64,000 nt of DNA, taken from contig JAFTQV010000061.1 in NCBI GenBank assembly GCA_017462605.1, positions 24,262-88,261 on the forward strand. Reading direction: 5' to 3'. The first letter of the stretch is position 1. The number at the start of each line of letters is the position of its first letter. The notes under the pieces were generated by a model, which ran no database searches, was not told where the DNA came from, and saw nothing but the letters and a program-made list of their open reading frames with translations. Below, piece by piece: positions 35,801 to 56,297 of the stretch. Both the position numbers and the translations under genes were made by a program. Origin of the DNA: Clostridia bacterium (GTDB lineage Bacteria > Bacillota > Clostridia > Oscillospirales > CAG-272).

Positions 35801-36048
35801 CCTGTAGCCGTCGGACTGAAGACCGCGTATCCGCCGCCGTCCGCTCCAACCGCAAGCTCAAGCTTTGACTGCGCCGCGCCGCCGTGGCTCATATTATTCT
35901 GCCCCGAGGTGTTGCCCTTGCCGGACGTGAAATCGTCACTCACCTTGACCGCAACTCCCGAAGCGCCGCTTACCGTCATAGCGAAAACCGCGCACAGAAG
36001 AATAGCTACGGCAAGCAGTATCGGCAAAACGATCCTTGCTTTTCTCAT
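32896..36048 (-). CDS. Large secreted protein of unknown function (LamG-like N-terminus, beta-helix-like middle)
   Basis: Signal peptide MRKARIVLPILLAVAILLCAVFA and an uninterrupted 1050-aa ORF. I recognise no catalytic motifs. Confidence 0.6.
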   Translation of the reverse strand: MRKARIVLPILLAVAILLCAVFAMTVSGASGVAVKVSDDFTSGKGNTSGQNNMSHGGAAQSKLELAVGADGGGYAVFSPTATGTNPGHAFVQNSFGSGGVVLSSAGGNKYMVYDIDFTTETQYFESLVFEMIGKDSADKTVNTHAEGKVYVASDGAGGWNITANSKTLPMESERGRWQHLTIVIEAARDSSGATTADSKSYVYYNGRFLSSGKAQAKAFSYMHSMRISMNSGASVSIDDTLCIDNVTVTAVADSYSGNLAAVLADSSKSLTEWTDAVYKSGYTFPKTRAIAEVGGKKLSTASEIEAAITEGALVNLLSDVLDTVDIPNECSIYNDGGYTFNYNKGSFGEYKSAKTTAFLNAFASPVTVTWHIGDETVTETYDAPAVLTPPEFEETVEIGGVLHKALGYSRSEGGEMITDPGIASPYNNEFYVVFERSVAYALHSDGTKSYAYSEEELDALMLATVSGDTVYLLSDLKAGVTGNAACYTFTGKSVTLDLSGYTLTMAGVSNNHLFTVGKNGSLTVKNGVIDALDNGRIPEGGTAIVRRNVFKIPNDASGAYLLAEDLTVKASKMMTVVGNGEAVLRRCKIDFTNDYENMIDFYSNGSETSPTTLRLEECDIRAYKTVVNSYKPSDVTGNYSELYARNCNINTNERIFTVNAISKAEINGGTYTGTNLFANENANKSAKVYIYRNTYFSLEDLDQKNKLLIITDGKLVRSGREDCPYAVTDKYAKIKWDILGEEVSELWAMGAIPECPIKIPHNTSALRYDMEKPIPVSGYKLYNLEAKLNFTPKISATLDYDFGLNLYVPDADYKSVALGDMTFEKSEGKSVLISGEPYLKFSLNSIAASAADEKIPLSFSFDTEAGELSLMGETSVISYLESVIEGGSSFDEYNLALSALNYINASQGDVASAELTEMLAKYDTSTVVYAMAKTDASMAALGGVISESKIENGKYIFTYDTNFTGNISFKYNISGDTVTEFFEISEGKDQAGGSYATLKAPALAYVTGVEVTAGSASGSFDLSAYAENVGMLDIYSAMYSYAKCIEAYIN

Positions 36049-36224: not shown

Positions 36225-36971
36225 ATGATGAGTAGTATATCAGGTCTTGTTTCAATATCCTTCAGAAAGCACTCTCCCGAAGAGATAATATCCCGAGTAA
36301 AGGCGGCAGGCCTTGAGGCGATAGAATGGGGCGGAGACGTCCACTCACCTCACGGCGATCTTGAGACCGCAAAAAGCATCCGCAGCATGACCGAAAAGGC
36401 AGGGCTTCTTATGCCCGAATACGGCTCGTATTATATCATCGGCAAGAGCGAGCCCGAGCTTTTCTCTGCCGTTCTTGATTCCGCAAACGCTCTCGGCACA
36501 AAAATTATCAGGGTATGGCCGGGAATGGGCATGCCGAGCGACACTATAAGCAATGAGCAATACGAGGCAATGGTAGCCGATGCAAAAAGAATATGCCTTC
36601 TCGCAAAGGACTTTACCGTGGCGCTTGAATGCCACCCTGCCTCTCTTACAGACGAATACCACAATGCCTTGGCATTCATTCGTGACGTTGGAATGGATAA
36701 CCTTAAAATGATGTGGCAGCCTAACCAGTACCGCCCTCTTGAATATAATCTTGACTCGATCAAAGCGCTCCTTCCTTACGTCGTTTCGGTTCACGTTTTC
36801 CACTGGTCAAGAAAGACCCGTCTTCCCCTCTCCGAAGGCAGAGCAGAATGGGAAAAATACATCTCTCTTCTCTCGGCAAAGGACTTGAATTATATGCTTG
36901 AATTCATGCCCGACGACAATATAGATACCCTCGCCCGCGAAGCAGAGACTCTAAAGAGTTTTTTAGTTTAA
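36225..36971 (+). CDS. Xylose-isomerase-like TIM-barrel protein (sugar phosphate isomerase/epimerase family)
   Basis: RBS AAAGGAG. The size (248 aa) and blocks EAIEWGGD, IIRVWPG, ALECHP and LEFMPDD fit the AP-endonuclease-2/TIM family. Confidence 0.6.
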   Translation: MMSSISGLVSISFRKHSPEEIISRVKAAGLEAIEWGGDVHSPHGDLETAKSIRSMTEKAGLLMPEYGSYYIIGKSEPELFSAVLDSANALGTKIIRVWPGMGMPSDTISNEQYEAMVADAKRICLLAKDFTVALECHPASLTDEYHNALAFIRDVGMDNLKMMWQPNQYRPLEYNLDSIKALLPYVVSVHVFHWSRKTRLPLSEGRAEWEKYISLLSAKDLNYMLEFMPDDNIDTLAREAETLKSFLV

Positions 36972-37192: not shown

Positions 37193-39316
37193 ATGACTCT
37201 TGAAACATCCAATTTAATCTGCAGAACCTGCGGTGGACAAGTAGAATTAGACGAAAGCCGAAAGCAAGGTAAATGTAGATTCTGTAAAAACGTTTATCAC
37301 TTTAAGAACGAGAAAAGCGAAGCGCTGATTCTTGCGCTAAACAGAGCAAATCTACATAGACAAAAATGCGATTTTCGCGAAGCTATCAAAGAATACCAAC
37401 TTATTATTGATAAAATGCCCAACGACTCCGAAGCGCACTTTGGTATGCTGCTTTCAGTGTTTGGAATTGAGTACGTTCGTGACCCTCGACTTGGCATATA
37501 TATGCCCACCTGCCACCGTTACGTCGAGGCAGACATTTTGAAGCATCCGTCCTATCTGGCCGCATTATCAAACTCCGCCACCGAACAACGTGAAAACTAT
37601 AAAGAGCAAGCAGAAGCTATTGCAATACTTTTGAAAAGAATAAAGCATCAGTTAGAAAAAGAAGAAGATTTCGACGTTTTCATATCCTTTAAATCAACCG
37701 ACGAGGACGGCAATCCCACAAAGGACAGATTAGTTGCAAGAAAAGTATACGACGAGCTTACCTCTCGAGGAATTAAAGTATTCTTCTCCGAGGTAACTTT
37801 AAAAAATCGGCTCGGCGATGAATACGAGCCGATAATATTCAAGGCTCTTATGAGCTGTAAAGCTTTCATATTAGTAGCCACTTCCGAAGAGAACATCAAT
37901 TCCGTTTGGGTAAAAAACGAATGGTCGCGATTTGAAGACAGAATACGCGACGAGCATTTAAACGGAACGTGGTTATCGGTATTCAACCCAAGCTGTCGCG
38001 ACTCACTTCCTTCATTTTTACATACTCAAGGAATTGATCTGTCAAAATACCCGGCAGGCGGTTATGAAATTGAGTTAGCCGATAACATTGAGCTTAAGCT
38101 CGGAAGAAAGAATCAAACTAATTACGTTACGGCAGATTTTGAAAAAGAATATAAAAAATGGCAAAAGGAAAAGAAAGATAAAAGAAAAGAAAAATGCAAG
38201 TTTTTCTTTAAAAAAACGTTTCCTTACATATCAGCTATATTGGCAATCTCTGCTATTGTATTCATTTCATTGCTCGTAAGAAGCTCTATTATCGATAACG
38301 AGCAAGCCACGGCTAAAATCGGAGTAGAATTGGCGCGGGAAGCGGCTGATAAAGGAGATTATTATACCGCTTATAATTACTATTCATCTCATAAAATACA
38401 AAAACTAAATGATTCAGCAATTGATCGCGAATTTAAATCATATGAGTACGCGGCTAATGGAGATTATTCAAACGCAACAAAGAACGGATTATCAAAAATT
38501 ATAATACACGATGGTGTCACCAGCATAAGCGTAGGAGCTTTCAGTGGATGCTCCGAACTCGAAAGTATAGTGATTCCCGACAGTGTCACTAGCATAGGCG
38601 TAGGAGCTTTCAGCGGATGCTCGTCGCTTCAAAGCATAACCCTTCCTTTTGTTGGACGATCCATATCAGATACTTATCAATACCCCTTTGGATATCTATT
38701 CGGTACTTCAACCTATGACAATGCTGTAAAAACCGAACAACACTATAAAAACGAATCCGGCGAAAAGGAATCTTATACCACCTTTTACATTCCCAAAACG
38801 CTTAAAACTGTTACAATAACCGGCGGATACATTCCGTATGGAGCATTCTCAAATTGCGAGGATATAGAAAGCATTATTATACATAACGGTTACGGTGTGA
38901 TTGGTGAAAAAGCATTTTCTCATTGTTCCTCATTAAAGGAGGTAAGATTTGATGATAACTGCAGCATAAACGAGATAGGATCCCAAGCATTTAGTAACTG
39001 TTCAAATTTGACTACATTTAAAATTCCAAGCGACGTGGATATTATACATGAGTTAGCGTTCTATCAATGTAGTAGTTTAAAAAGCATTATAGTTCCTAAG
39101 CAAGTATCAACTATACATAATGATGCGTTTTTGAACTGCAAAAGCCTCGGCGATTTGTATTTCGAAGGGACCTTACAGGATTGGTCAATAACCGTTGGAT
39201 CTTTTAACACATCTTTTGAAAATGCAGCCAAATATTATTACAGTGCAAATAATCCCCTTGATAAAGGCTTGTATTGGAAATACGATGAAAACGGAAAGGT
39301 CTATATTTGGAATTAA
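37193..39316 (+). CDS. Zinc-ribbon / TIR / single-TM / BspA-type LRR protein (TLR-like topology)
   Basis: RBS AAGGA. Ribbon CRTCGG...CRFCKN. TIR-like block DFDVFISFKSTDEDG...KVFFSE...AFILVATSEENINSVWVKNEWSRF. A Lys-rich stretch KKWQKEKKDKRKEKCKFFFKK precedes the TM helix FPYISAILAISAIVFISLLV (38219-38278). LRR units follow, such as IPDSVTSIGVGAFSGCSSLQSITLP. Confidence 0.8.
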   Translation: MTLETSNLICRTCGGQVELDESRKQGKCRFCKNVYHFKNEKSEALILALNRANLHRQKCDFREAIKEYQLIIDKMPNDSEAHFGMLLSVFGIEYVRDPRLGIYMPTCHRYVEADILKHPSYLAALSNSATEQRENYKEQAEAIAILLKRIKHQLEKEEDFDVFISFKSTDEDGNPTKDRLVARKVYDELTSRGIKVFFSEVTLKNRLGDEYEPIIFKALMSCKAFILVATSEENINSVWVKNEWSRFEDRIRDEHLNGTWLSVFNPSCRDSLPSFLHTQGIDLSKYPAGGYEIELADNIELKLGRKNQTNYVTADFEKEYKKWQKEKKDKRKEKCKFFFKKTFPYISAILAISAIVFISLLVRSSIIDNEQATAKIGVELAREAADKGDYYTAYNYYSSHKIQKLNDSAIDREFKSYEYAANGDYSNATKNGLSKIIIHDGVTSISVGAFSGCSELESIVIPDSVTSIGVGAFSGCSSLQSITLPFVGRSISDTYQYPFGYLFGTSTYDNAVKTEQHYKNESGEKESYTTFYIPKTLKTVTITGGYIPYGAFSNCEDIESIIIHNGYGVIGEKAFSHCSSLKEVRFDDNCSINEIGSQAFSNCSNLTTFKIPSDVDIIHELAFYQCSSLKSIIVPKQVSTIHNDAFLNCKSLGDLYFEGTLQDWSITVGSFNTSFENAAKYYYSANNPLDKGLYWKYDENGKVYIWN
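37667..38047 (+). other. TIR-like domain of the 707-aa protein
   Basis: Comprises aa ~159-285. The beta-A strand is VFISFKS, and the conserved Glu in WVKNEW is encoded at 37919-37921. Confidence 0.65.
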
Positions 39317-39342
39317 AGCAAATTATATCCACCTTTTAAACG

Positions 39343-39386
39343 GAGCTGCAACGAATCCATTTTCGAGCAGCTTTGTTTTATTTTTC
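39343..39386 (+). terminator. Terminator after the TIR-LRR gene
   Basis: GAGCTGC (39343-49) pairs with GCAGCTT (39367-73) around a 17-nt loop, followed by TGTTTTATTTTT. Confidence 0.5.
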
Positions 39387-39395
39387 GAGTTCGTA

Positions 39396-39424
39396 TTGAC
39401 AAATTCATCTTTTTGCGTTATAAT
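39396..39424 (+). promoter_or_regulatory. Perfect consensus sigma-A promoter of abiEi-abiEii
   Basis: TTGACA (39396-39401), a 17-nt spacer, then TATAAT (39419-39424). Confidence 0.7.
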
Positions 39425-39443
39425 AATCTCGGTTAGACTTTTT

Positions 39444-39460
39444 TGAACATTATTTGTTCA
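39444..39460. promoter_or_regulatory. Palindromic operator candidate TGAACA-TTATT-TGTTCA
   Basis: Lies between the -10 box and the RBS of abiEi. AbiEi antitoxins are known to autoregulate by binding inverted repeats in their own promoter. Confidence 0.45.
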
Positions 39461-39492
39461 TTCTTGTCAAGCAAATATATAGATAGGAGGGA

Positions 39493-40131
39493 TTGCCTTT
39501 GTTTACTAAAAAGCTAAAAGAAAGCTTCAAACTCAACGAGCCTATTTTCACAAGCGAAATACTTGAATCCTTGCCCGGCCTTTCTCGAGCCCGCATTTAT
39601 CAACTGATTTCAGATGCGGAAAAAAACGGTTATCTCGTTCGTTATGACAACGGCATATATTATATGCCCAAAAAGACGGAATTCGGACTATCAGTTCCAT
39701 CAGTTAACAGTGTTGTCGACAAAAAATATATAAAAGACAAAGGTAAGACCTTCGGTATTTACGGCAGATACGTTATGGAATTGAATTTCTCGGTAAGCAC
39801 TCAGGTTCCAAATGATATCGAAGTAATAACGAACAACGAATCCCGTAGGGTACGCGAAATATCTATAAGAGGCAGACGCGTTATTTTACGGAAGTCGAGA
39901 TTACCGATAACAAATGAAAACGAGGGCGCATATACCCTTATGGAGCTATTCAACAATATAGATATGAGGCAGTACCGAGAGGAACAACAAATACAGGATT
40001 CGGTATACGAATACGTCCGCAACAAAAAGATCACAAGAAAGGACATTCTGAGCTTAGCAGATGCTTTCCCTGCAAAAGCAATGAAAAACATAGCGCTAAG
40101 CGGAATTTTATATGAAGCTACACAACAATAA
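39493..40131 (+). CDS. abiEi: AbiEi-family type IV antitoxin / transcriptional regulator
   Basis: TTG start (39493, or 39499) after AGGAGGG. It has an N-terminal wHTH-like region and overlaps the AbiEii gene by 20 nt. The size and pairing are typical of AbiEi. Confidence 0.65.
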   Translation: MPLFTKKLKESFKLNEPIFTSEILESLPGLSRARIYQLISDAEKNGYLVRYDNGIYYMPKKTEFGLSVPSVNSVVDKKYIKDKGKTFGIYGRYVMELNFSVSTQVPNDIEVITNNESRRVREISIRGRRVILRKSRLPITNENEGAYTLMELFNNIDMRQYREEQQIQDSVYEYVRNKKITRKDILSLADAFPAKAMKNIALSGILYEATQQ

Positions 40132-41020
40132 AGAATCATTCAATGATCTGATTTCATTGGTAAGTGATTACTATAAAATCGATCCGGCTCTTATAGAGAA
40201 GGATTATTTTGTAACGCTTCTTTTAAAGAATCTTGCCTCTAGGGTTCCCGATCTTTTATTCAAGGGTGGTACGTCACTTTCAAAATGTCACAAAATCATT
40301 GATAGGTTTTCCGAAGATATTGATTTAACGTTAAACGATAATCAACAAACGCAAGGTAAGAAAAAGCAAATGAAAACCGCAATTTTAGAAGCCTGCGAGT
40401 CACTTGATCTTCGGTTAATGAACCCTGATGACATAAGAAGCAGGCGTGATTATAATTGTTACAGAATAGAGTACCCTATCCAACGTTACTCTGAAAGCAT
40501 CAAGCCGTTACTCTTAGTAGAAACTACTTATATCACAAGATCATATCCAAGCGAATATAAGCCTGCTACATCAATAATTTACGATTATTTAAAAGAGATC
40601 GGAAACCTTGAAGCGATAGAAAAATATGAGCTTGAACCATTTAGCATTCGCACTCAAACGCCGGAAAGAACATTGATCGATAAGGTTTTCGCAATATGTG
40701 ATTACGCGATAGGCCAGCGTATCGAAAGGAATTCAAGACATATTTACGACCTATCTAAGCTACTGAAAATAGTCGATCTCAACGAATCTTTAAAGAAGCT
40801 GGTAAAAGACATTCGTGCCGACAGAAAGACACATGCTTTGTGCTATTCAGCGCAGGACGGTGCAAATGTACCTCAATTGCTTTACGATATAATTAAATCC
40901 GAAATATATAAAGCAGATTACGAAACCGTTACTAAGGCTATGATGTTCAAATATTTACCTTATAGCGAAGCAATTAAGGCATTGGATAAAATCATATCAA
41001 GCGGTGCTTTTGAAAATTAA
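40112..41020 (+). CDS. abiEii: AbiEii/AbiGii-family nucleotidyltransferase toxin (DUF1814)
   Basis: Signature blocks LLFKGGTSLSKCHKIIDRFSEDIDLT and RTLIDKVFAICD...RHIYDL. Confidence 0.8.
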   Translation: MKLHNNKESFNDLISLVSDYYKIDPALIEKDYFVTLLLKNLASRVPDLLFKGGTSLSKCHKIIDRFSEDIDLTLNDNQQTQGKKKQMKTAILEACESLDLRLMNPDDIRSRRDYNCYRIEYPIQRYSESIKPLLLVETTYITRSYPSEYKPATSIIYDYLKEIGNLEAIEKYELEPFSIRTQTPERTLIDKVFAICDYAIGQRIERNSRHIYDLSKLLKIVDLNESLKKLVKDIRADRKTHALCYSAQDGANVPQLLYDIIKSEIYKADYETVTKAMMFKYLPYSEAIKALDKIISSGAFEN

Positions 41021-41030
41021 ATAAAGAACT

Positions 41031-41080
41031 GGCTCGAATGCAAAATAAATTCTGCGTTCGAGCCAACTTTTGTTATATTT
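41031..41080. terminator. Bidirectional terminator between abiEii and the convergent giant TIR gene
   Basis: GGCTCGAA-T-GCA...TGC-G-TTCGAGCC hairpin (41031-41064) followed by AACTTTTGTTATATTT. Confidence 0.6.
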
Positions 41081-41117: not shown

Positions 41118-44100
41118 TCAGATATCCAACCACTTATACTTTTTTATATAGATTTCCGCATCGGCAAGCGAAGCAAAAAATCCGCTGACCCACTCGCTCT
41201 TAAAAGAGAATACAAGTCTCTCTCCCTCAGCAAGTGTGATAACGTATTGGCTTGGGTCGGCGCCCGCCGAGCGCTCGGCAGATTCGGTGTGTATCACCTC
41301 ACCGTTATCACCGTAAACGGTTAAAGTCATATTTATGACGGTCAACGCATCGTTAGAGGCAGCGGGAAGATAGTATATAGTATAATCTCCCGCCTCTTCG
41401 CAAAAGAACTCAAAATATGCAGTGGCTTCCGATCCCAGAGTGCAAGTGACCTTATAAGGCTCGTCAAGAGGGATCTCCTTAGGCACAGAAAGGCTCGTGC
41501 CCCGCGCATCACTCTCCCATCTTGCGTAGAGAGTGGTAGCCGTCTTGCTGTAATAATGCTCCGCATCGACCGCTCTTCCCGCAAATTCCGCATTATCGTA
41601 CCAGCCGATAAAATAGGACTTAGTCGGGTGACTTGGGGGTGCGGGAAGCTTGATTGCTCTTTGGTCGATTATGTCCGCGACAGCGCCGCCCTCGGTGACG
41701 AAGCGGTACGTGATGTAAGAGCCGTCGTAGCCGAAGATAACGGTAGGCTTATCACCTATCCAGCCCTCGTCCCAGCCCTCGGGTTTTTCCTCTGCCGCGC
41801 AGTAGATCACAACGTCAGCGGCATTCTCGATGATACTCGAGCTGACGGTAGTTACCGAAGCCGGAATATCGAGGGATTTAATGCCTATGCACGCCGCAAA
41901 TGCGCCTGCTCCGATGCTCTCAAGCATGGAATCGCGGGGGATGATAAACTTATTTATCGCGGTGCAGCTCGCGAATGCGTGCAGGCCTATGCTCTTCACG
42001 CTCTTCGGAAGCATAAATTCAACGAATGCCTTGCAGTATGCGAAAGCCTCTTGACCGATACTTGTCACTCCGTCCGGCAAGGTAGCCATGGAAAGCGACG
42101 TGCAGTTCGAGAAGGCAAGCTCGCCGATCTCGGTAAGATTATCGGGAAGATCCACGCTTTCAAGACTCGAGAAGCCATAGAATGCCTTGTCTGAGATCAC
42201 CTTCTCACCCGTGACGGTAACAGACTTAAGCGCGCCCGGAATGTAGTAGGTTGCATCAGAGCTCTCAATGACGTAAACGTTGCCGCCCGCAGATGACTGC
42301 CCGAAGAAATATCCAAGGACCTCTTCCTTAGCGTAATCGGTCGTCTCGGATGCGGTGCATCCAACGAAGGGGATAGTAAGCGATGAAAGCGAGAAGCAGC
42401 CCCCGAGGAAGCCGCGGGAAAGTGTCTTTGCGCCTCTTACGTCAAGGCTCTCGAGAGACGAGCAGCCAAGGAACGCTTCTTCTCCGATAAATTCAAGAGA
42501 GGTGGGAAGGATATTGGGATTTATCTCTTCGTCTCCCTGATAGATGTTTTTAAGAGCCGAGCAGCCGCTGAATGCACGGCCGCCTATTGAAGCAAGATCG
42601 GTAGGAACGTATATCGAGGTAAGACCCGAGCAGCCGCTGAATGCGTGCTCGGAGATCGCCTTAACGCCGTTGCCTAAAAGCACGTCCGTCAGATCGATCA
42701 TATTCTCAAAGGCGTAGGATACCACGTATCCGCCGTTATCTATCGCGATCACCTTAAGGTTTTTCGGAAGCTGATAGGTCCTCTCGCTCCAGCTATTGCC
42801 CTTTTCGTAATAATGCTGAGTGACGCCTACACTCGCAAGCACGGTATCGTTACCGTAATAGGTGGTATCAACTACCGAATATCTCTCCTCGCCGAAGAAA
42901 TAGCCTATCGGGTAAGCGTAAAGCACGTCAAGCTCCGCATCACCCGACTCGGGCGCTTCATCCGAAAGTCCCATAACGCCTGCCGAGGGGAACTTGACAG
43001 TCTCAAGGGAAACGCAGCCCGAAAGCATTCCGGGATAAAGCTCCTTTACCGAGCCGGGAATAGAGAGAGTCTTAATAAGATATCTGTTTTTGAAAATATC
43101 GGGAACTATTTCGTTAACCACAGCTCCCTTTATCGTCTTGGGGATGAAAAGCTCGTAGGTATTATTGGCAATGCTTGCGCTATCCTTCGGCTCATCGTCG
43201 GGCTTGCCCTTAAGTCCGATGAGAACGACGGTGCCGTCTGCCTTCTTGATCCACTCAAGTCCCGACGGAGTAATTCCATATTCAGAAGTAACGCCGTAAA
43301 ATACGGGTCTTTGTGCAGCATTCCAATCCGCGTCGAAATCAGCGGGTGCCTCGGCGCTTTCCATATAGACCTTGACATTTGGACTGCCTCTGAAAAGATC
43401 CTTGCTTACCTTGGTCAGGCTCGCGGGAATGAATACCGACTCAAGCGATGAGCAATTTGCAAAAGCTCCCTCTCCAACCTCGCTGACGGCGGCGGAAAGA
43501 GTGATCTTTTCTATGATCTCGTTGCCCGAGACGGCGCCATTATATAATTTATAGGTAGAGTTTTCGCCAAAGGACGAGGGAAGAGTCAGCTCCTTTGCAT
43601 ATCCAACGTAAGCAAAGAGTCCTTCCTCGGTATTATTCTCATCCGAGTAGCTTACGAAAACGAGTCCGTTATCGATAGTTACAACGCCCTTGGCATCGAT
43701 AGACTCAAGCTTATTAAGTATCTTATTGACCGCGCCGTCAAAAGCATTGCTCTCGGAATAAACGTCAAAAAGAGTGTGGCCCGAGTTAAATGCATTAGAG
43801 GAGACCGAAACTTCCTTCGCGCGGCAGATGACCGATATAAGCTTATCGCATCCGAGGAATGCGCCCGAATTAATGAGAGTAAGAGTCTCGGGAAGAGTGA
43901 TCCTCACAAGGCGTGACTCACCCGAAAACGCGCCGGAGCCCACGTAAGCCGTCTCGTATCCCGCGATCTTATCGGGAACGGTAAGGTCGTATGCCGAGCC
44001 GAAGTAAGCCTCGATGCTTGCAACGTCCTTTGTCTCAGCGGTCTCGCCCGACTGGATCTGAAGGCTCTTTATAACGTAGCCGAAGCCGTCATCGCTGACG

Positions 44101-47100
44101 CCGTCTATTTTCTTGACGTTATCCGAGGAAAGACCTGCGTTCCAATAGCTGTCCCACATACCGGTATTGACGCTGTAGCTCATATAAACGGCAGGGCTTG
44201 AACCGTAGAATATATTAGATCCCGCGCTTACGACCGATGCGGGGATATATACGTGAGTAAGATTTCCACACTGCGAGAAGGCTTTCATTCCCACCGAAGC
44301 TATACCCTCGGGAAGGATCACCTTCTTGATCGTATCGTTGCCGAAGAACGCCTCGTTTTCTATTCTGAGAACGTTATAACCGTCCAGCTTTTCGGGAATA
44401 TTCACTATACTGTCCGTACCCGTGTAGCCGATTATCGCAACTCCGTCGCCGTAAAGCTCGTATTCAATGCCTACGGTGCCGTAGCTCCACTTGGGTGTAA
44501 GGGTAGTATCCCAGACAACGAATGAATTCTCAAAATCCCATTTATTTCCAAATCCGTCATACCAGCCCTCGAAGGTGTATCCGGGGCGAATGAGGTTGCC
44601 GGGATCTTCGATCTTCTTAAACGCCTTGCTCGTCACAGGATCGATATTACCCCAACCCTCGGTCTCGAAGGTGACGGTATTTTCCTTGACAAAACCAACG
44701 TAAGCTCCTAGAAGAAGGATAGCCGCGATAAGCACCGCCGCGAATATTCTCGCCGCAGCCTTTTTGGTCTTCTGGCGTGAGAGCGCCTTCGTCTTAACGG
44801 TAACGGGTGAATAGAAGCTCTCGATCACGCCAAACTGAGGCATGATCTCCTTTGCCGCATTATTGTGTTTTCTCAGCTCCGGCAGGCAGGCGAACTTCTT
44901 CATATAGTCCTCTCTTCGGTTCTGGTGCGCGCTGTATACCGAGGAGAAATATTTATGCTGAGCATCGGTAGCCGAGTTGAGCGCCTCGCGGTATTCGGTG
45001 TATTCCTCAAGCTTTTTCTTCGAGCGGCAGATCTCGTAATCGTCGACCGCGTGAAGACGGCACTTGAGAAGTCCCCACCTGATGAGAGCGAGCATCTCGG
45101 ATCTCTTTGTCGGTCCTAACTGCTCTGTGAGAGTATCCGATTCGGTGATGACCGAATCCATATCGGTAAAGTAGGTCTTAGCCTCGGAAAATCTTCTCTC
45201 GAAGATCATGACCATAGCGATCTTATAGAGGAATTCGAGATAAGCCGCTTCGCCCTTTATACTGAGAACTCCGTTGCCCACACACTCTATAAAGGGTCTG
45301 TGATGCGAGAAGTTATTCTGTATCTGATAGGAGAGAAGGCGCATAAGGTCCTTGACCGTAACGTTCTCAAAATCGCACTTCGAGCAGATAAGTATTCTCT
45401 CTATGATCTCATCCTTATCGAGATCCTTCGGCTCCTTCTTGGATGCATCGTCATCCTTATTGATCTTAAGCTTGAAGGAGCGCATAGGAGATCCGCCGAG
45501 ACGGCAGCCGAGAAGGTTCCAGTACATCGCCGCCTCGTGGCTCGCCTTAAGATAGGTATTGAAATACTCTATCGCCTCTTTATAATATCCCGAGAAGTAG
45601 AGCGAATTTGCGAAATCACGCAAGAACGCCATATTGAAGGCGTTGTTTTCCGCTATGAAAAGCTTATCGCGGCAGGTCTCGTAAAGCGCCGTCGCAAATT
45701 TAAGATTGCCCGCCTTGACCGCATCGACCGTATGACCCTTGATGATATCAAGAAGATTTTTGATCGACTTATCGGGAATATACTTGGCAAGCACCTCAAG
45801 GAGCTTTACTATCTGATTATCGTTCTCAGCCTTCGCGACCTGATACATAAGCATATTGATCAGGTTATCGGTAAAGTCCTCGTCCGTGGGGTTATTTATC
45901 GCCGCCTCGAGAAGCGAGAATGCCTCGGGTCCTACCGACTTGAAGCTGTAAATAAGATCGGCAGGCTGAGTGATCTCGGTGGGAGAGGCTCCCCTTAAGC
46001 TTCCCGTTATATACTTATCGGGCAGCTTCACCTTGACCTTCGATAAGAACATACCGAAGTAAGCCTTACCGTTGTTCGGGTTCTCGTCCGCTATCTTCTT
46101 GAAGCTCTGGTATGCTATATTGTAATTCTTATTGACGAGGTAGAGGTTTGCGTTCTGCATCTCTCTCGCCTCGGACGCCGTGATATGAGTAATGGTCCTT
46201 GACTGACCTATGTTTACTCTCTTCTCGCCGGCTCCCGTATAGTCGAGCGACTCCTCGTCAAAGCCCTCGTTAAGCACTCTCGTGGGTATTTTCGCGCCCC
46301 TCTTTCCGCCCGGCTTGACGAATTCGAGCGCGCGGATAAGCTCATCCTTAAAGTTAAGGGAGAGCGCGTCTATCATAGTATGCTCTATCCTTCCGCCGAG
46401 AGCCGCAGGAAGCTTCGGAGGCTTGCCGAAGTAAACAATTATTAGCGAATTCGGCATTTTCTTGCCTCTGCCGATGAAGTACATATACCTCTTCCACTCG
46501 TTTTCAACCCAAGCGCTTTCAAGGTATTCATACTTGCTCGCGAGAAGCACCATTGCCTGAGAGGTCTGAAGAGCCTTAAGTATTCTCGGCTCATAGTCCT
46601 TACCCTTAAGGTTCTTATCATTGCCGATGGACTCGGGCGAGAAGAATACGTTATACTTCTTCTTTGTGAAAAGCTCGTAGATCTCCCTTGCAGTCTTGCA
46701 GTCCTGAGTCTCTATGGTCATCTCGCTGCCGTCTATCGTCTGAATTACGTCGCTCGACTTGAAGGAGATGAATATATTGTAAGCAGGCTCCTTATCAAGA
46801 AGCTCGAAGTGGCGGCGAAGTATACCGTCAAGCTCCTCGACCTGAGTGCGGTAGAAGTCCGCATCGCCCGACGTCGCCGCATTTTCGATAGCAAGCTTGA
46901 AATTATCGCTGCTCGCAAGCTCGTGACCCTTCTCATAGCTATGGTGGAAGAAGGTGGGCACAGGCACCTGCTTTGTCGCATCCGTAACGTATACTATTCC
47001 GTATTCGATAAGCAAGGACTGCCAGTAAAGCTCACCGCAGGCAGGATTTTTTCTCTTGTATTCGGTGCAAAGATCCTCTGCCTTGATGAAATCACGCAGC

Positions 47101-47258
47101 TGCCTGAAGCGGCTGATATCCCTGAGGTCGGCGGTGATGTCTTTATTTAAATTATCGTAGACCCTCTTACAGTATCGGCACTGCACCTTAATACTGTCGC
47201 GCGGAATGTCAAGAGGCGCGCCGCAGTGCAGACAATTGAGAGTGGCTGATGGATTCAT
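41118..47258 (-). CDS. 2046-aa zinc-ribbon / TIR / TPR-like / single-TM / LRR + Listeria-Bacteroides-repeat + PPC-like surface protein
   Basis: RBS AAAGGA. Ribbon CLHCG...CRYCKR. TIR-like block aa ~159-300. About 500 aa of helical repeats follow. A basic stretch plus TM (RQKTKKAAARIFAAVLIAAILLLGAYVGFV, ~44689-44750) comes next. Beyond it are YTFEGWYDGFGNKWDF-type repeats and many BspA LRR units (IPASVTTVSSS, LPDGVTSIGQEAFAYC...). There is no LPXTG motif. Confidence 0.85.
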   Translation of the reverse strand: MNPSATLNCLHCGAPLDIPRDSIKVQCRYCKRVYDNLNKDITADLRDISRFRQLRDFIKAEDLCTEYKRKNPACGELYWQSLLIEYGIVYVTDATKQVPVPTFFHHSYEKGHELASSDNFKLAIENAATSGDADFYRTQVEELDGILRRHFELLDKEPAYNIFISFKSSDVIQTIDGSEMTIETQDCKTAREIYELFTKKKYNVFFSPESIGNDKNLKGKDYEPRILKALQTSQAMVLLASKYEYLESAWVENEWKRYMYFIGRGKKMPNSLIIVYFGKPPKLPAALGGRIEHTMIDALSLNFKDELIRALEFVKPGGKRGAKIPTRVLNEGFDEESLDYTGAGEKRVNIGQSRTITHITASEAREMQNANLYLVNKNYNIAYQSFKKIADENPNNGKAYFGMFLSKVKVKLPDKYITGSLRGASPTEITQPADLIYSFKSVGPEAFSLLEAAINNPTDEDFTDNLINMLMYQVAKAENDNQIVKLLEVLAKYIPDKSIKNLLDIIKGHTVDAVKAGNLKFATALYETCRDKLFIAENNAFNMAFLRDFANSLYFSGYYKEAIEYFNTYLKASHEAAMYWNLLGCRLGGSPMRSFKLKINKDDDASKKEPKDLDKDEIIERILICSKCDFENVTVKDLMRLLSYQIQNNFSHHRPFIECVGNGVLSIKGEAAYLEFLYKIAMVMIFERRFSEAKTYFTDMDSVITESDTLTEQLGPTKRSEMLALIRWGLLKCRLHAVDDYEICRSKKKLEEYTEYREALNSATDAQHKYFSSVYSAHQNRREDYMKKFACLPELRKHNNAAKEIMPQFGVIESFYSPVTVKTKALSRQKTKKAAARIFAAVLIAAILLLGAYVGFVKENTVTFETEGWGNIDPVTSKAFKKIEDPGNLIRPGYTFEGWYDGFGNKWDFENSFVVWDTTLTPKWSYGTVGIEYELYGDGVAIIGYTGTDSIVNIPEKLDGYNVLRIENEAFFGNDTIKKVILPEGIASVGMKAFSQCGNLTHVYIPASVVSAGSNIFYGSSPAVYMSYSVNTGMWDSYWNAGLSSDNVKKIDGVSDDGFGYVIKSLQIQSGETAETKDVASIEAYFGSAYDLTVPDKIAGYETAYVGSGAFSGESRLVRITLPETLTLINSGAFLGCDKLISVICRAKEVSVSSNAFNSGHTLFDVYSESNAFDGAVNKILNKLESIDAKGVVTIDNGLVFVSYSDENNTEEGLFAYVGYAKELTLPSSFGENSTYKLYNGAVSGNEIIEKITLSAAVSEVGEGAFANCSSLESVFIPASLTKVSKDLFRGSPNVKVYMESAEAPADFDADWNAAQRPVFYGVTSEYGITPSGLEWIKKADGTVVLIGLKGKPDDEPKDSASIANNTYELFIPKTIKGAVVNEIVPDIFKNRYLIKTLSIPGSVKELYPGMLSGCVSLETVKFPSAGVMGLSDEAPESGDAELDVLYAYPIGYFFGEERYSVVDTTYYGNDTVLASVGVTQHYYEKGNSWSERTYQLPKNLKVIAIDNGGYVVSYAFENMIDLTDVLLGNGVKAISEHAFSGCSGLTSIYVPTDLASIGGRAFSGCSALKNIYQGDEEINPNILPTSLEFIGEEAFLGCSSLESLDVRGAKTLSRGFLGGCFSLSSLTIPFVGCTASETTDYAKEEVLGYFFGQSSAGGNVYVIESSDATYYIPGALKSVTVTGEKVISDKAFYGFSSLESVDLPDNLTEIGELAFSNCTSLSMATLPDGVTSIGQEAFAYCKAFVEFMLPKSVKSIGLHAFASCTAINKFIIPRDSMLESIGAGAFAACIGIKSLDIPASVTTVSSSIIENAADVVIYCAAEEKPEGWDEGWIGDKPTVIFGYDGSYITYRFVTEGGAVADIIDQRAIKLPAPPSHPTKSYFIGWYDNAEFAGRAVDAEHYYSKTATTLYARWESDARGTSLSVPKEIPLDEPYKVTCTLGSEATAYFEFFCEEAGDYTIYYLPAASNDALTVINMTLTVYGDNGEVIHTESAERSAGADPSQYVITLAEGERLVFSFKSEWVSGFFASLADAEIYIKKYKWLDI
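46359..46784 (-). other. TIR-like domain of the 2046-aa protein
   Basis: YNIFISFKSSD...NVFFSPESI...AMVLLASKYEYLESAWVENEWKRY. The conserved Glu254 codon is at 46497-46499. The block is collinear with the TIR block of the 707-aa paralogue. Confidence 0.65.
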
Positions 47259-47286
47259 TAGATCGATATCCTTTCGGTTTTAATTC

Positions 47287-48066
47287 TTAAAGGCGTCCCT
47301 TCGCCTTTCTGATAAAGTCAAGCACGATATCAGCGGGGATAGCGTAGTTCATACCCTCGGTCGCGCTTCCGTCGCGCTGGATACGGCTCGAAACTATAAC
47401 GCCGATTGCGATACCCTCTGAGTTGAAGATAGGTCCGCCCGAGTTACCGCCGTTGATAGCGCAGTCTGTCATCATAAGGGTATGGCCTGCAAGCTGGCGG
47501 CGCTTATCGCTGACGATACCGCTCGTGATACAAGTTCCGTCTCCGAGCGAATTTCCGACAACGTATACCTGCTCGCCGATGCGTACCTTATCAAAGTCTC
47601 CGATGACTATGGGAGATGCATCGTAGGGCACTCTGTCAAGCTTGATGAGAGCGAGGTCAACGCCTGCTCCTCTGCCGCCCTGATTATCGCCGAGAGCGAT
47701 GATCCTCGCTCCTATTCTCTCACCCGATATCGTTGCAACAACGGTATGGCAGGGGAGCGATTCATCGGTGACGACGTGAGTATTGGTGATAGCGTAGCCT
47801 TCTCTGTCAATAAGGAAGCCCGAGCCTGCCGAAGCGCCTCTGTGAGAGAGGCAGCTAAGCTCAAGGATACCCTTGATATTCTTCTCGAAAACGTCAACTC
47901 CCGAGGATACTCTCGGCGCAGGCGCAGCAGCGGGCGCGGGCGCGGTGGGAGCTGAAGCGGGAGCCTTCGGAGCTGCCGCATCATAGTCTATCTTCTTGCA
48001 AAGCTTGCATTTGAAAAATCCGTCCGGTGTCGGAATAAGGGGGCCGCCGCAGTTCTTACATTTCAT
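47287..48066 (-). CDS. Zinc-ribbon-fused cytoplasmic trypsin-like (S1/DegP-type, no PDZ) serine protease
   Basis: I prefer the ATG at 48064-48066 (MKCKNCGG), which has GGAGG 8 nt upstream. Ribbon CKNCGG...CKLCKK, then a Pro/Ala linker. Triad context TNTHVV / VDLALIKL / GNSGGPIF. No signal peptide. Confidence 0.8.
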   Translation of the reverse strand: MKCKNCGGPLIPTPDGFFKCKLCKKIDYDAAAPKAPASAPTAPAPAAAPAPRVSSGVDVFEKNIKGILELSCLSHRGASAGSGFLIDREGYAITNTHVVTDESLPCHTVVATISGERIGARIIALGDNQGGRGAGVDLALIKLDRVPYDASPIVIGDFDKVRIGEQVYVVGNSLGDGTCITSGIVSDKRRQLAGHTLMMTDCAINGGNSGGPIFNSEGIAIGVIVSSRIQRDGSATEGMNYAIPADIVLDFIRKAKGRL

Positions 48067-48086
48067 AGTCTCATCCTCCAAAAGTC

Positions 48087-49127
48087 TTAAGAGAGCTGCT
48101 TGCCGCAGCCCGAGCAGAACTTAGCTCCGCCCTTATTTTCAGCTCCGCAAGCGGGGCAAACGGTCTTTGCTATAGCGGTAGCCTTACCGCAAGCCGAGCA
48201 GAACTTAGCTCCGGGAGCAAGCTCGCCGCCGCAATTGGGGCAAAAGTTGCCTGCCTTGGGCGCGCCCGAATTTGCGTTTGCGCCCTTAAGCACCTCGTAG
48301 TAAGCCGCCTTATCGCGCATCTCAAGCTCGCGAAGGTATTTCTCGCGCTCCCAGTTCTTATCGTCAAGTCTCTCTTCCTCGGCGCGGCGCTCCTTATCGC
48401 TGAGAGTCTTCTTCATATTCTCGATATTATCCTCGATGAAGCCCTCAAGCTTCTCCTCGTCGCCCTCGGCGAGATTTATGCTGTTGATAATGAAGTTGGA
48501 AAGCTCTATACCCCACTGCGTGTCAAATTTCTTATTGAGTATGGGGGCTATAAGAGAAGCGATCATCTTCTTATCCGAGGTGAACTCTTCGTACGTAAGC
48601 TTCTTCTCGTGCGCCACCTGGCAGAATACGTCGCAGAATTCGTTGACTACCGCGCTAAGCACTCTTTCCTCGAAGTCCTCGCGGGAGAACTCACTCCTTG
48701 CGCCGCCGAGCTTCTTGAAGAACTGATCGTGATTTGTGATATTGATACCGAACTCACCGTTCGCTCCGATCTTAATGGTCTTGAAGCTGAAGGGATCGCG
48801 GTAAATAAATCTGTCCGGCGTGCCCCAGCAGATAACGATATCGGTCTCCTTGGGCATATAAACGACCTCGACCGAAAGACCCTTCTTCCAATCTCCGACC
48901 TCTCCTCTGGTATCGAAAACCTTATAGTTTCCGCTCTCGAGCAAACGGCAGTCTCCGCCGCCCTTGATAAGAAGAGCTACGTGAGTCATAGGAACCTCAA
49001 CGATGGCGTCCTTCTTCTCAACGATGGAATTGACTCTGACGAAAAGCACGTCGTTATCGTCCACCTTCGCGTTGCACATATTCTGATCAAACTTGATGAC
49101 CTGAGGCTTTTTATTAAAAAATCCCAT
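48087..49127 (-). CDS. SPFH (YdjI / COG4260-like) protein with a coiled coil and C-terminal double zinc ribbon
   Basis: MGFFNKK...WGTPDRFIYRDP...GANGEFGINITNHDQFFKKL resembles YdjI-type SPFH proteins. A charged coiled coil follows (KERRAEEERLDDKNWEREKYLRELEMRDK), then CPNCGG..CSACGK and CPACGA..CSGCGK. Confidence 0.65.
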   Translation of the reverse strand: MGFFNKKPQVIKFDQNMCNAKVDDNDVLFVRVNSIVEKKDAIVEVPMTHVALLIKGGGDCRLLESGNYKVFDTRGEVGDWKKGLSVEVVYMPKETDIVICWGTPDRFIYRDPFSFKTIKIGANGEFGINITNHDQFFKKLGGARSEFSREDFEERVLSAVVNEFCDVFCQVAHEKKLTYEEFTSDKKMIASLIAPILNKKFDTQWGIELSNFIINSINLAEGDEEKLEGFIEDNIENMKKTLSDKERRAEEERLDDKNWEREKYLRELEMRDKAAYYEVLKGANANSGAPKAGNFCPNCGGELAPGAKFCSACGKATAIAKTVCPACGAENKGGAKFCSGCGKQLS

Positions 49128-49184
49128 AATTAAATCTCCCGATATGTAAAAATTTGGCGGATAATATTACGCCATTATAAATTG

Positions 49185-49213
49185 AGTATATCATACATAT
49201 AAATATTTTGCAA
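49185..49213 (-). promoter_or_regulatory. Promoter of the SPFH-protease-TIR operon
   Basis: On the minus strand: TTGCAA (49208-49213), a 17-nt spacer, then TATACT (49185-49190), about 50 nt upstream of the ATG at 49127. Confidence 0.55.
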
Positions 49214-50933: not shown

Positions 50934-53900
50934 TTACGGATCACTATCATAACTACTACCTTGACTGCCGGGTTGACCGTCCTCGCCTTTTATAGTTACT
51001 AAATTATCAACGGCAATATTATTTACAATTGCAACAGCTCCGGCTCCGGCATCTCCGCCAGCGCCTCTCGTTCCGTTCGCATAGTTAGTATCTCTGCGAC
51101 CGCCAGTACCTCCGTTGCCGCCTTGACCACCGGTAGCTACTCCGTTAGTGGTTTTAATAATATCAAAGGTTTGTGCCTCTATTGCACAAGCTCCCGAACC
51201 GCCCGAACCGCCTTTGCCACCGACATTTTGGGAACCCCATAATTTATTTCTTGCATCCTCTCCTTTTCCTCCGTCGCCACCTCGTCCGCCTACGATGCTA
51301 AATACTGAATCACCATATGCGCGGAATGTATTACATTTTAAAGCAACGCCACCATCACCACCTTTTGCTCCGGGGTTTCCGTTTCTGGAACTTCCAGGTA
51401 TTCCAGTATAATCTCCCCCCTCGCCTCCGGCGCCGCCCACAATATTAAGCGAAGCAGTACGCTTGACAGTCACAGTCTCGGCATTTATTGCTACACCGCC
51501 ATCACCGCCCTCTGTGCCTTCCGCAGAAGGATTTGCGCCATTTCCGCCAACGACAGTTAATTTTCCGTTTTCCATATCAACAGTAATATTCGTAGCGCTA
51601 ATTGCGGTACCGCCGGTCGCAGATTGATCGCTTCCCGCTCCTGCTGTAACGGTAAGCTCTCCGCTTCCCGTGAAGGTAAGTGATTCAATGTCATTAAAAA
51701 TTATTCCCGCTTCAGCAGACGTACCGATCGAGCATTTTCCGTTTACATCAACGGTCAAGTATGTGCCGCCATTATTGTATGTAGAAAATGCCGGATTATA
51801 ATCTGAAATAAGATTAAAATCTGATAAACGTATCAGTACAGGAAATTCAGGGCGGAAGCTGCACAAAGTAATGCCGAGATTCAAATAAGTTTTCAGAGGA
51901 TCGCCAACAAAGACAATTTCCTCTGTTGCAGGGTCAATATCAATATGACCTTTTCTTCCTACGTGATCTTCAATTCCGTAAGAAGGAATATCACAATTAC
52001 TGATCATGCTCCAATCAACTATTATCTTGGGTACGCCCTCAATAGGTCTTCGGGGCGTGCTTTCCACGGTATTAAACACGCTATAAGTATCTCCGCCTGA
52101 CCACGTATCGGAAACCACGGTGCCCGTCGGAACGTATTTTCCAACCGTAAAGGGATCGACTTCCCAAACTGCGTAAAGGTTGACATTTCCGCCGTAAACC
52201 GAGGTAAGATTCTTAATCTCAGCTTTATCTTCATAAACAACGTTACCGGTTGATGACGTTGACCAGCCCTTAAATATCCAGCCGTTGACACTAAGTGTAT
52301 TTGGGCTGAGAGTTGCGCTTTTTCCGTATATGCACGTTATAGACTGCATTTTATCGGTCGTCAAGGCGCCGTTTTTGGGGGTGTTTTCAATAAAGCTTAC
52401 GCTGTATCTAATAGGTGTTTTCTTCGCATAGAAAACTTTATTTCCGTAGCTTCCCTTGGTAACAGATACAATAGGTTCTCCGCTATATGATGAGTTGGAA
52501 TACCACTCGCCGATCTCATAACCCTCAAGTGATGAGTGATCCGCAAGTATTATCGCATCAGACTCAACGTTATACGGAATAACCTTGAATATCTCTCCGT
52601 CAAGGACTAAGGTTGCCGTAAATTCGATGGGCTCCGACCACTTTGCATAGAAGATTTTATTTCCTGTGCTTCCTGCTTCAAGCTTTGTTACAGGTGAGCC
52701 TGAAAGCTCTGCATTGTCATACCATGCAACGGTATTATAAGCAGGGTGATATACTTTATCGGACGTGGGAAGAATAACCTCTTCGATCTTATTATAAATT
52801 ATACTGTCAATACCCTCTCCGCCGTTTGTTACGAAGTTGATAGTGTACTGATTATAATTCATCTTACCGTAAAGCGTTATATCGCTGCAAAGAGCCGCTA
52901 CGATAGTTTTATAAGTAATACCAACAAGACTTTCGCTCTCATACCAAGCCTCAAATGTCTTTCCCGATTCCTCGGGAGTCGGCAGATCAATAACGACGTC
53001 CTCAATATCATAAACGATCTCTCGGAATATCTCTCCGCCAAGCATAAGAGTTATAGTATATTCATTCAGCTTCCACTTTGCATAGAAGATCTTTCTTCCC
53101 GTGCTGTTCTGCTCGATCTCGGTAATGGAAGAACCGCTGTAATCCGAAGACGTATACCAGCCGATGAAGGTGTATCCTTTTCTTGTGGGAGTCGCGAGAG
53201 TTACGGTATCGTTTTTAGTATAACTTCCGTTTGCAATAGACTTGCCGCCCATGGTCTCGTAAATGATATCATACTCGGTGATCTCCCACCTTGCATAAAG
53301 CTCGAGATTATCGATAGTACCGGGCGCGATAGAGAATATGGCTTCTCCGCTCAAATCAGCATTCGTATACCAGCCGCAGAACGTTTCGCCGTATTTAGTA
53401 GGCTCAGAGAGATCTATCTCTGCAGAATTTATATAATACTCTATTGAGAGTATTTCGCTTCCGCCGTTTGAATTGAAAGTAATTATATATTTTGTCGGAT
53501 GTACCGCCATAGCATAATAGATTTTATCTCCGGTGCTGCCCGCGGGAATAAACGTCACAGGATCTCCGCCGAATGCTTCATTCCTGAAGAAACCTTCAAA
53601 ATCATATCCGGGCTTATCGACCGATGTCGGAAGCTCATAATCGGGGGACTCTATCGTGTAGGTATCGGTCTTTATGATCTTACCGTCAAGATAAAGGGTG
53701 ATATTATATACGTGAGGGACGAAACGTCCGTAAAGCGCAATATGCCCATAGCTTCCCGCGCCGATAGACGTGATAGCCTCACCCGAAAAATCGGAGGTTT
53801 TATACCAGCCTGCAAAGTCATATCCGCGCTTTTCGGGAATAGTTAGATTTTCAGTTTCCTTTATAGTATATTCTTCGGGCGCGATCGCATCTTCACCCTC

Positions 53901-56276: not shown

Positions 56277-56297
56277 TTTTACCTCCACTTCATTTTC

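Follow-up and report, generated by a model that had tools for sequence, protein, structure and literature searches.

To our knowledge, the TIR-based defence systems described in bacteria (Thoeris types I–XI and others) have soluble, cytoplasmic TIR proteins and effectors with a signal-binding domain, and all bacterial TIR systems that have been characterised sense intracellular events. TIR domains must self-associate to act as NADases, and the membrane cages formed by SPFH proteins regulate proteases, as in HflK/C-FtsH and the stomatin-partner protease. Here we describe three adjacent minus-strand genes of a Clostridia bacterium, which specify an SPFH protein (gene 1), a Zn-ribbon protease (gene 2) and a giant protein with a TIR domain (gene 3), within a 64-kb stretch of contig JAFTQV010000061.1 (the window). 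Our preferred reading, to which we give a probability of roughly 40%, is that the three genes form one conserved operon encoding a membrane-anchored TIR module, in which an SPFH platform, TIR clustering triggered from the ectodomain, and the ensuing NAD+ cleavage and proteolysis would make up the mode of action.

Like the TIR proteins of Thoeris, CBASS, Pycsar and SPARTA, the giant is a bacterial TIR protein with a catalytic-position Glu, encoded in an operon with a putative effector, and ThsB and SPARTA proteins are among its fold matches. It differs from them in that its TIR domain is predicted to be tethered to the membrane beneath an ectodomain, and in having an SPFH scaffold as its constant partner. 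Membership of Thoeris was ruled out, as the candidate effector has no signal-binding domain and no system model of PADLOC or NCBIfam was matched; the NCBIfam model ThcB4 gave 18 bits (cut-off 220).

The layout of the giant had been likened, in a preliminary description made from the sequence without database searches, to that of animal Toll-like receptors (TLRs). The likeness holds for a single-pass protein with leucine-rich repeats (LRRs) outside and TIR inside, and for a large family with diversified ectodomains. It does not extend to common descent: the N terminus of the giant is predicted to lie inside, there is no signal peptide and the domain order is reversed; its LRRs are of the BspA type (LRR_5) and occur with Flg_new repeats; its TIR domain matches TIR_2 and keeps the Glu; it carries an N-terminal Zn-ribbon and a long TPR solenoid; and in place of TIR adaptors it is accompanied by an SPFH protein and a protease. 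The giant is a TLR analogue of convergent layout, and no TLR homologue.

Three other systems resemble parts of the locus. In Bacillus subtilis, YdjI brings PspA to the membrane, according to passages in PMC11188069 and PMC11237479 that cite this work. The PspA-YdjGHI system shares with the locus an SPFH (Band_7_1) protein with C-terminal Zn-ribbons and ribbon-bearing partners at the inner membrane face, and differs in that this protein is here combined with a TIR receptor and an HtrA-type protease. Among archaeal loci of the endosomal sorting machinery ESCRT, some include an SPFH/coiled-coil/Zn-ribbon protein of the 'Meth_adaptin' type (PMC11188069). Relatives of the operon described below likewise have an SPFH/coiled-coil/ribbon gene followed by genes for helical proteins and a CdvC/Vps4-like ATPase, but they are bacterial (Clostridia) and include TIR and protease genes. 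According to PMC11188069, ESCRT components are not identifiable in bacteria; these Clostridial clusters, which lie outside the window, would bear on that statement, and their ATPase on whether ESCRT-like ATPase machinery operates in bacteria. Finally, as in the SPFH-protease pairs HflK/C-FtsH and stomatin-NfeD/STOPP, an SPFH scaffold gene adjoins a protease gene, which suggests, by analogy, scaffold-controlled proteolysis at the membrane. The protease here is of a different kind, a soluble HtrA-type enzyme with a Zn-ribbon, and thus neither a membrane AAA protease nor a ClpP-like NfeD protease.

No description of the SPFH/protease/ribbon-TIR gene set was found in open-access full text, although an earlier mention elsewhere is possible; a systematic survey of TIR signalling in bacteria from 2025 has nothing on SPFH, Band-7, trypsin, leucine-rich repeats or zinc. 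PADLOC-DB v2 has no system-specific hidden Markov model (HMM) matching the giant, the SPFH protein or the protease, and none was found in NCBIfam, in line with the preliminary description, which knew of no described defence or signalling system with this gene set. We regard the locus as a new variant among systems built on TIR domains, namely a family of membrane-spanning receptors tied to SPFH scaffolds, of which the window carries a reduced, protease-bearing version.

Architecture of the three predicted proteins

Pfam assigns TIR_2 (29.6 bits, cut-off 28), LRR_5 (4e-87, five blocks) and Flg_new (2.7e-14) to the giant. The AlphaFold2 model of aa 1–330 (pLDDT 83.5, pTM 0.80) has as its best PDB matches in Foldseek the TIR domains of SARM1, TIR-1, MyD88, IL-1RAcP, TIR-STING, SPARTA TIR-APAZ and EcThsB, with a TM-score of 0.64–0.73 to the MyD88 TIR (normalised to the latter). 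A profile of the family's TIR segment matches plant TIR domains as well (RUN1, E 2e-6), and aligns the family motif WVxNEW to WCLDEL of RUN1; the aligned Glu is the residue mutated to Ala in PDB 7s2z, and corresponds in the giant to Glu254, within SAWVENEW. Both the TIR-like segment and the catalytic candidate of the preliminary description are thus supported: aa 150–300 adopt a TIR fold in the model, and by fold and Glu position the domain falls in the NADase-competent subclass, enzymatic activity being predicted. The roughly 500 aa of helical repeats noted previously were modelled (aa 300–840, pLDDT 77) as an all-alpha solenoid whose best PDB matches are TPR superhelices (OGT, P58IPK and SPINDLY).

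The giant has one hydrophobic segment only. The 20 residues before it hold seven Lys/Arg and no Asp/Glu, while one Lys/Arg and four Asp/Glu follow it; a signal peptide was not found, and a Zn-ribbon stands at the start of the protein. Because of the positive-inside rule, and of this ribbon start without a signal peptide, the ribbon, TIR and TPR parts are placed in the cytoplasm, and the giant is likely a single-pass N-in/C-out protein with an extracellular Flg_new/LRR region, the same orientation as first proposed. The best NCBIfam match of the ectodomain is the LRR adhesin HupY. In the nearest species-level relative (locus L005, protease 71% identical), which has the same three-gene layout and a 2159-aa giant, the cytoplasmic ~800 residues are 63–81% identical to those of the window protein, with the TIR core highest and the TPR solenoid at 65–69%, whereas the ectodomain is 26–46% identical. 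The alignment shows a conserved predicted interior and a fast-evolving predicted exterior.

Gene 1 was described previously as a YdjI-like SPFH protein with a coiled coil and two ribbons. Pfam detects Band_7_1 (E 1.2e-13) and Zn_Ribbon_1/DZR, a charged coiled-coil stretch lies between the Band_7_1 body and the C-terminal ribbons, and a transmembrane segment was not found, so that all elements of the YdjI architecture are present. The ribbons are of the double-zinc-ribbon (DZR) type, unlike those of the TIR proteins and the protease. PspA, YdjG and YdjH are absent from the genes flanking gene 1, the rest of the window not having been searched for them.

The product of gene 2 matches Trypsin_2 (E 7.6e-27), and the intact His/Asp/Ser context reported for it corresponds to a triad (H97/D137/S209) that does not vary among 34 aligned homologues. 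The solved structures closest to it are the protease domains of HtrA/DegP (Thermotoga maritima HtrA, 1l1j, E 6e-30), and NCBIfam likewise places it with HtrA proteases. With the HtrA/DegP (S1C) proteases it shares the chymotrypsin fold and the triad, and lacks their PDZ domain and extracytoplasmic location; Pfam and hydropathy detected no PDZ domain, signal peptide or transmembrane segment. It is, as predicted from these features, a cytoplasmic HtrA-family (S1C) protease in which an N-terminal Zn-ribbon replaces the PDZ domains. Beyond ribbon, linker and HtrA core, Pfam and NCBIfam gave no candidate for a ligand-binding or nucleotide-sensing domain, and the PADLOC matches are at the domain level (RT-Protease_XI 8e-12, LmuA 4e-5). 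A TTG five codons upstream of the ATG is an alternative start, less likely because the ATG has GGAGGA 7 nt ahead of it.

TIR proteins and protease have N-terminal ribbons of one family (hhalign 98.8%, E 6.7e-17). An HMM of the TIR ribbon recovers 34 protease N termini among 4,952 open reading frames (ORFs), with eight matches outside the TIR and protease sets, and the reciprocal search with the protease ribbon recovers 20 TIR proteins. In one locus without an SPFH gene nearby (L003), a stand-alone 432-aa protein, P0068 (L003:10001-11299), is a fusion of Zn-ribbon, HtrA protease and TIR domain, with the TIR domain in the position usually held by PDZ in HtrA. Given the shared ribbon, this fusion and the missing ligand-binding domain of the protease, physical co-assembly of TIR protein and protease is favoured over a diffusible signal between them. 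The shared Zn-ribbon suggests a simple docking code, testable and reusable. Three other proteins, in or beside clusters of this kind, start with a ribbon of the same family (L036:10420-11331, L030:10707-11558 and L058:6758-7843), and may be additional ribbon-docked components.

Operon structure and synteny in other genomes

The three minus-strand ORFs lie exactly where the preliminary description placed them, and the gaps of about 20 and 28 nt between them, with a ribosome-binding site for each gene, were confirmed (20 and 28 nt, a purine-rich site per gene). A single hairpin terminator had been noted behind the operon; a strong hairpin with a U-rich tail, missed by a pattern scan and detected by direct folding, sits in the 97 nt that separate the giant gene from the convergent AbiEii gene. 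The promoter claim fared less well. The motif TTGCAA-17-TATACT is present upstream of gene 1, but it is statistically not separable from chance: the operon region has 13 promoter-like matches against 9.2 ± 2.9 in shuffled sequence, and a second candidate lies at 49203..49174. Since such motifs are not enriched over the shuffles, we grade this candidate promoter as plausible and no higher. The GC content of the operon (0.48–0.51) is the same as in the rest of the window, and Rfam and tRNA scans of the window gave no matches.

The three-gene arrangement is present in three independent metagenome assemblies, and chance adjacency was ruled out by synteny in other species. Ribbon-protease homologues number at least 706 at E <= 1e-10, nearly all in metagenome-assembled genomes of Clostridia. 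A scan of one genome per species, with window proteins and neighbours mapped by phmmer, gave 77 protease loci, of which 51 have a same-strand SPFH gene and 43 a ribbon-TIR gene on the same strand. Both are found in 36 of the 77; where the flanks extend for 8 kb or more on either side (30 loci), 19 have both. The lack of synteny elsewhere for which the preliminary description had allowed is thus not observed. Three genes alone, in the order SPFH, TIR, protease, occur in L037 and L068, and L010 has the gene order of the window with a small gene inserted behind the SPFH gene.

Most of the 36 loci also carry genes for a Vps4/CdvC-like ATPase and two helical proteins. The usual order is SPFH-ribbon, a 110–145-aa protein, two helical proteins of ~190–200 aa, none to two ribbon-TIR genes, the AAA ATPase, the ribbon-protease and at most one further ribbon-TIR gene. 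SPFH, TIR and protease occur together with a full-length CdvC/Vps4-like ATPase in 32 of the 77 loci; the archaeal CdvC model is matched over its full length (221 bits) and Vps4_C scores above its cut-off. The larger cluster, with one to three ribbon-TIR membrane proteins, is seen in L006, L008, L054, L077 and about 30 other loci (for example, L006:5261-17030). Such a bacterial Vps4-like module appears to be undescribed. The 64-kb window holds none of its Vps4/CdvC-like ATPase, helical proteins or small protein and, judged by this synteny, its operon is a reduced form of the larger conserved cluster. As for the helical proteins, 10 of 31 of the type labelled Eb match Pfam Snf7 weakly and below threshold (best E 0.013), and profile searches against PDB gave no sequence match. 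By hhalign, a helical protein and an approximate Snf7 query sequence scored 0.2% probability, and the two types, Ea and Eb, 1.9% with each other.

Centred on the TIR protein, the family is far larger. Word-indexed searches with the N terminus of the giant (as a single sequence or a 51-sequence profile) found 3–4 proteins only, and its size is taken from an exhaustive search of 50%-identity representatives with a profile of the N-terminal module, which gave 9,568 matches at E <= 1e-3, 4,460 of them at E <= 1e-30. The profile includes some TPR sequence from behind the TIR domain, so that lower-scoring matches may be TPR-only proteins; in all matches listed, the match begins at residue 1–5. Among the 149 best representatives, 144 start with CxxC..CxxC, 148 keep the catalytic-position Glu, and 121 have, behind the module, exactly one predicted transmembrane helix, with a median start at aa 572 and 100–1800 residues beyond it. 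The C-terminal regions of 48 sampled members, about 40 of which have TPR repeats, contain LRR_5 (13), DUF6273 (10), Flg_new (5) or RCC1 repeats (3–4); family members have interchanged these predicted ectodomains.

Scanning metagenomes for the TIR module gave 80 loci, many from the human gut. A Band_7_1 SPFH gene is on the same strand in 54 of them; among the 17 that extend 3 kb or more past the TIR block on either side, 15 have it; two or more tandem TIR paralogues are present in 34, the ATPase in six and the protease in one. The linkage of SPFH with Zn-ribbon-TIR genes extends over hundreds of genomes. Since the SPFH gene accompanies TIR in 54/80 loci and the protease in 1/80, the core is the SPFH protein plus the ribbon-TIR-transmembrane-ectodomain protein, with the protease and the Vps4-like set as clade-specific additions. 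The roles first suggested were scaffold for the SPFH protein and effector for the protease; the SPFH protein is the constant partner, and the protease is accessory, not the central effector. In three loci, the first of two tandem TIR genes (L056:3713-5260, L066:4586-6373 and L079:3728-5386) has Gln in place of the catalytic Glu (VKNQW/VKNQY), and this replacement suggests a catalytically inactive, regulatory copy.

Proposed mechanism and competing explanations

In the mechanism we propose, the SPFH protein would oligomerise into a platform at the inner membrane face and hold the TIR receptor in or beside it. When the ectodomain is bound or perturbed, for instance by a phage tail, a rival cell, a host factor or damage to the envelope, this would alter receptor clustering, and the clustered TIR domains would cleave NAD+, leading to depletion or to an ADP-ribose (ADPR)-derived signal. 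Where present, the ribbon-tagged protease would join this assembly, and proximity would activate it, giving a second output. As to purpose, the likeliest is a response to conflict or envelope damage ending in growth arrest or, where relatives encode the Vps4-like ATPase, in membrane remodelling.

Several observations weigh against this reading. Housekeeping genes (ABC transporters, MarR regulators, metabolism) predominate among 150 ORFs that flank the cluster in 36 loci, and the sole hints of defence or mobility are five BrxL-like genes and three integrases; as no clear defence-island enrichment is seen among them, we claim no support of that kind. The family is nearly absent from viral contigs (three loci in 2.9 million) and was not found in plasmid or phage collections. 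The frequent Vps4-like ATPase partner points to membrane remodelling, not cell killing, and the absence of the protease from 79 of the 80 TIR-centred loci means that its role may be peripheral. The conserved Glu, which is also common in some TLR TIR domains (PMC7075850), is no guarantee of NADase activity, and the topology of the giant is read from hydropathy and charge bias, not from a dedicated predictor.

Some of these points lead to a different view, namely that the genes are an envelope-stress or membrane-repair module of the Psp/ESCRT kind and no immune system, with the SPFH protein (in relatives, with the Vps4-like ATPase and helical proteins) remodelling or repairing the membrane, the TIR/transmembrane protein reporting the state of membrane or wall and the protease trimming or releasing components. 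The YdjI architecture of the SPFH protein fits this, YdjI being a protein that works with PspA (PMC11237479, PMC11188069), as do the 32 of 77 loci with a full-length CdvC/Vps4-like ATPase, the many family members with multi-transmembrane C-terminal regions instead of ectodomains, the housekeeping flanks and the genome-typical GC content of the operon. The window, however, has no Vps4-like or helical partner genes, the helical proteins could not be placed with ESCRT-III or PspA (sub-threshold Snf7 matches, no sequence match in PDB), and conflict systems are where a strictly conserved catalytic Glu, tandem paralogues (34/80) and exchangeable, fast-evolving ectodomains are more usual. We consider such a module unlikely, though it is the most serious of the rival explanations. 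It is a good deal less probable that the genes work as a Thoeris-like pair, in which a diffusible ADPR-derived nucleotide made by the TIR protein activates the protease and the SPFH protein is auxiliary. There is a precedent for TIR-to-protease signalling in the caspase-like effector of type IV Thoeris (bioRxiv 10.1101/2024.10.24.620036, PMC13243611), the protease gene lies between the SPFH and TIR genes, and P0068 fuses protease and TIR; but the protease has no candidate ligand-binding domain, no PADLOC Thoeris model matches any of the three proteins, nearly all SPFH-TIR loci are without the protease, the systematic survey of TIR signalling is silent on SPFH, trypsin, LRR and zinc, and the shared ribbon and the fusion itself argue for physical coupling. 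Least probable is a plain surface adhesin, anchored by an N-terminal transmembrane segment, localised by its TIR/TPR part and with functionally unrelated SPFH and protease neighbours. BspA-type LRR and Flg_new repeats are typical of adhesins, HupY is the best ectodomain match in NCBIfam, and a second Flg_new giant is encoded 2 kb away, yet this explanation is contradicted by synteny (same-strand SPFH linkage in 54/80 loci, protease linkage in a large clade), and by the shared ribbon family, the better conserved cytoplasmic 830 aa and the nearly invariant catalytic Glu.

An extension of the preferred SPFH-TIR reading concerns the family as a whole. The ~4,460 clusters, from gut Firmicutes, could be functional analogues of TLRs, in which swappable ectodomains sense phage tails, rivals or host molecules and pass the signal to an SPFH-held TIR domain; the outputs would include cleavage of NAD+, a protease of the HtrA type and, in numerous genomes, a Vps4-like machine for membrane remodelling. 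Taken together, these claims are doubtful. If true, outside-in signalling through TIR would be described in bacteria for the first time; TIR surveillance would reach the bacterial cell surface, and the LRR/transmembrane/TIR receptor design used by animals would have had a second, independent origin. Clostridia of the human and animal gut have the family in abundance, so that it could influence how phages and their hosts, bacteria among themselves, and bacteria and their hosts interact. The SPFH link also bears on the roles of bacterial SPFH scaffolds.

Features of the window and of related loci

The positions of the operon genes, their domains and the features described below are collected in Table 1.

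Table 1. Genes, domains and signals of the operon and its downstream neighbours, in window coordinates
Feature	Position (nt)	Strand	Residues	Basis or remark
Candidate sigma-70-type promoter TTGCAA-17-TATACT	49185..49213	-		9/12 matches; TG ahead of -10 box
Gene 1, SPFH protein	48087..49127	-	346 aa	
Gene 1, Band_7_1 body	48447..48896	-	aa 78-227	Pfam
Gene 1, two C-terminal CxxC..CxxC ribbons	48093..48245	-	aa 295-345	Pfam
Gene 2, protease	47287..48066	-	259 aa	counted from ATG
Gene 2, N-terminal Zn-ribbon	47983..48066	-	aa 1-28	
Gene 2, protease domain	47398..47826	-	aa 81-223	behind Pro/Ala linker
Gene 3, giant	41118..47258	-	2046 aa	
Gene 3, N-terminal Zn-ribbon	47169..47234	-	C9/C12/C27/C30	same family as protease ribbon
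Gene 3, TIR domain	46359..46787	-	about aa 158-300	Pfam, AlphaFold2 model, profile alignment
Gene 3, Glu254 codon	46497..46499	-	aa 254	catalytic position
Gene 3, TPR-type solenoid	44889..46181	-	about aa 360-790	cytoplasmic by prediction
Gene 3, single transmembrane helix	44691..44747	-	aa 838-856	hydropathy
Gene 3, predicted extracytoplasmic region	41121..44690	-	~1190 aa	Flg_new + five BspA-type LRR_5 blocks
Hairpin terminator	41023..41070	-		dG -23.4 kcal/mol, z = -4.4; U-rich tail after
AbiEi/AbiEii pair	39493..41020			PADLOC 1.3e-48 and 6.3e-83
Second family member, Zn-ribbon/TPR/TIR/transmembrane/LRR_5	37193..39316	+	707 aa	transmembrane helix aa 349-367

Directly downstream of the operon, the GC content falls to 0.37–0.43 over a plus-strand insert (37193..41020). 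It contains a second member of the TIR family, overlooked in the preliminary description, and the AbiEi/AbiEii pair, which alone scores as a PADLOC system, as had been expected. The segment is absent from the syntenic site in L005, where the giant gene is directly followed by a homologue of the window gene at 36225..36971, and because of this absence it is a lineage-specific insertion, small and acquired horizontally.

On the minus strand are two adjacent ORFs of 675 and 1050 aa (30852..32879 and 32896..36048), without a match in Pfam, PADLOC or NCBIfam. The second Flg_new giant (50934..56288, minus strand) is a 1784-aa surface protein with at least 12 Flg_new (Listeria-Bacteroides) repeats and no TIR domain; its gene is 2 kb upstream of the operon, on the far side of one for a GH77 4-alpha-glucanotransferase.

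In five of the related loci, a BrxL-like Lon-type ATPase/protease (PADLOC BrxL, E down to 2.5e-197) is encoded within 5 kb of the cluster; likely examples are L052:290-2356 and L059:319-2388, and no other BREX genes were seen there. This neighbour could be lineage synteny or another component. The three contigs classed as viral (L082–L084, from IMG/VR) carry TIR and protease genes, or SPFH and TIR genes. A variant cluster (L001:5487-19680) lies beside four TerD genes and includes a Zn-ribbon/TIR/TerD fusion, two proteases, three AAA ATPases and a Band_7/ribbon protein, followed by genes for a Ter-type C-C bond lyase and an ATP-grasp protein; this gene content links the module to stress loci of the tellurite-resistance type.

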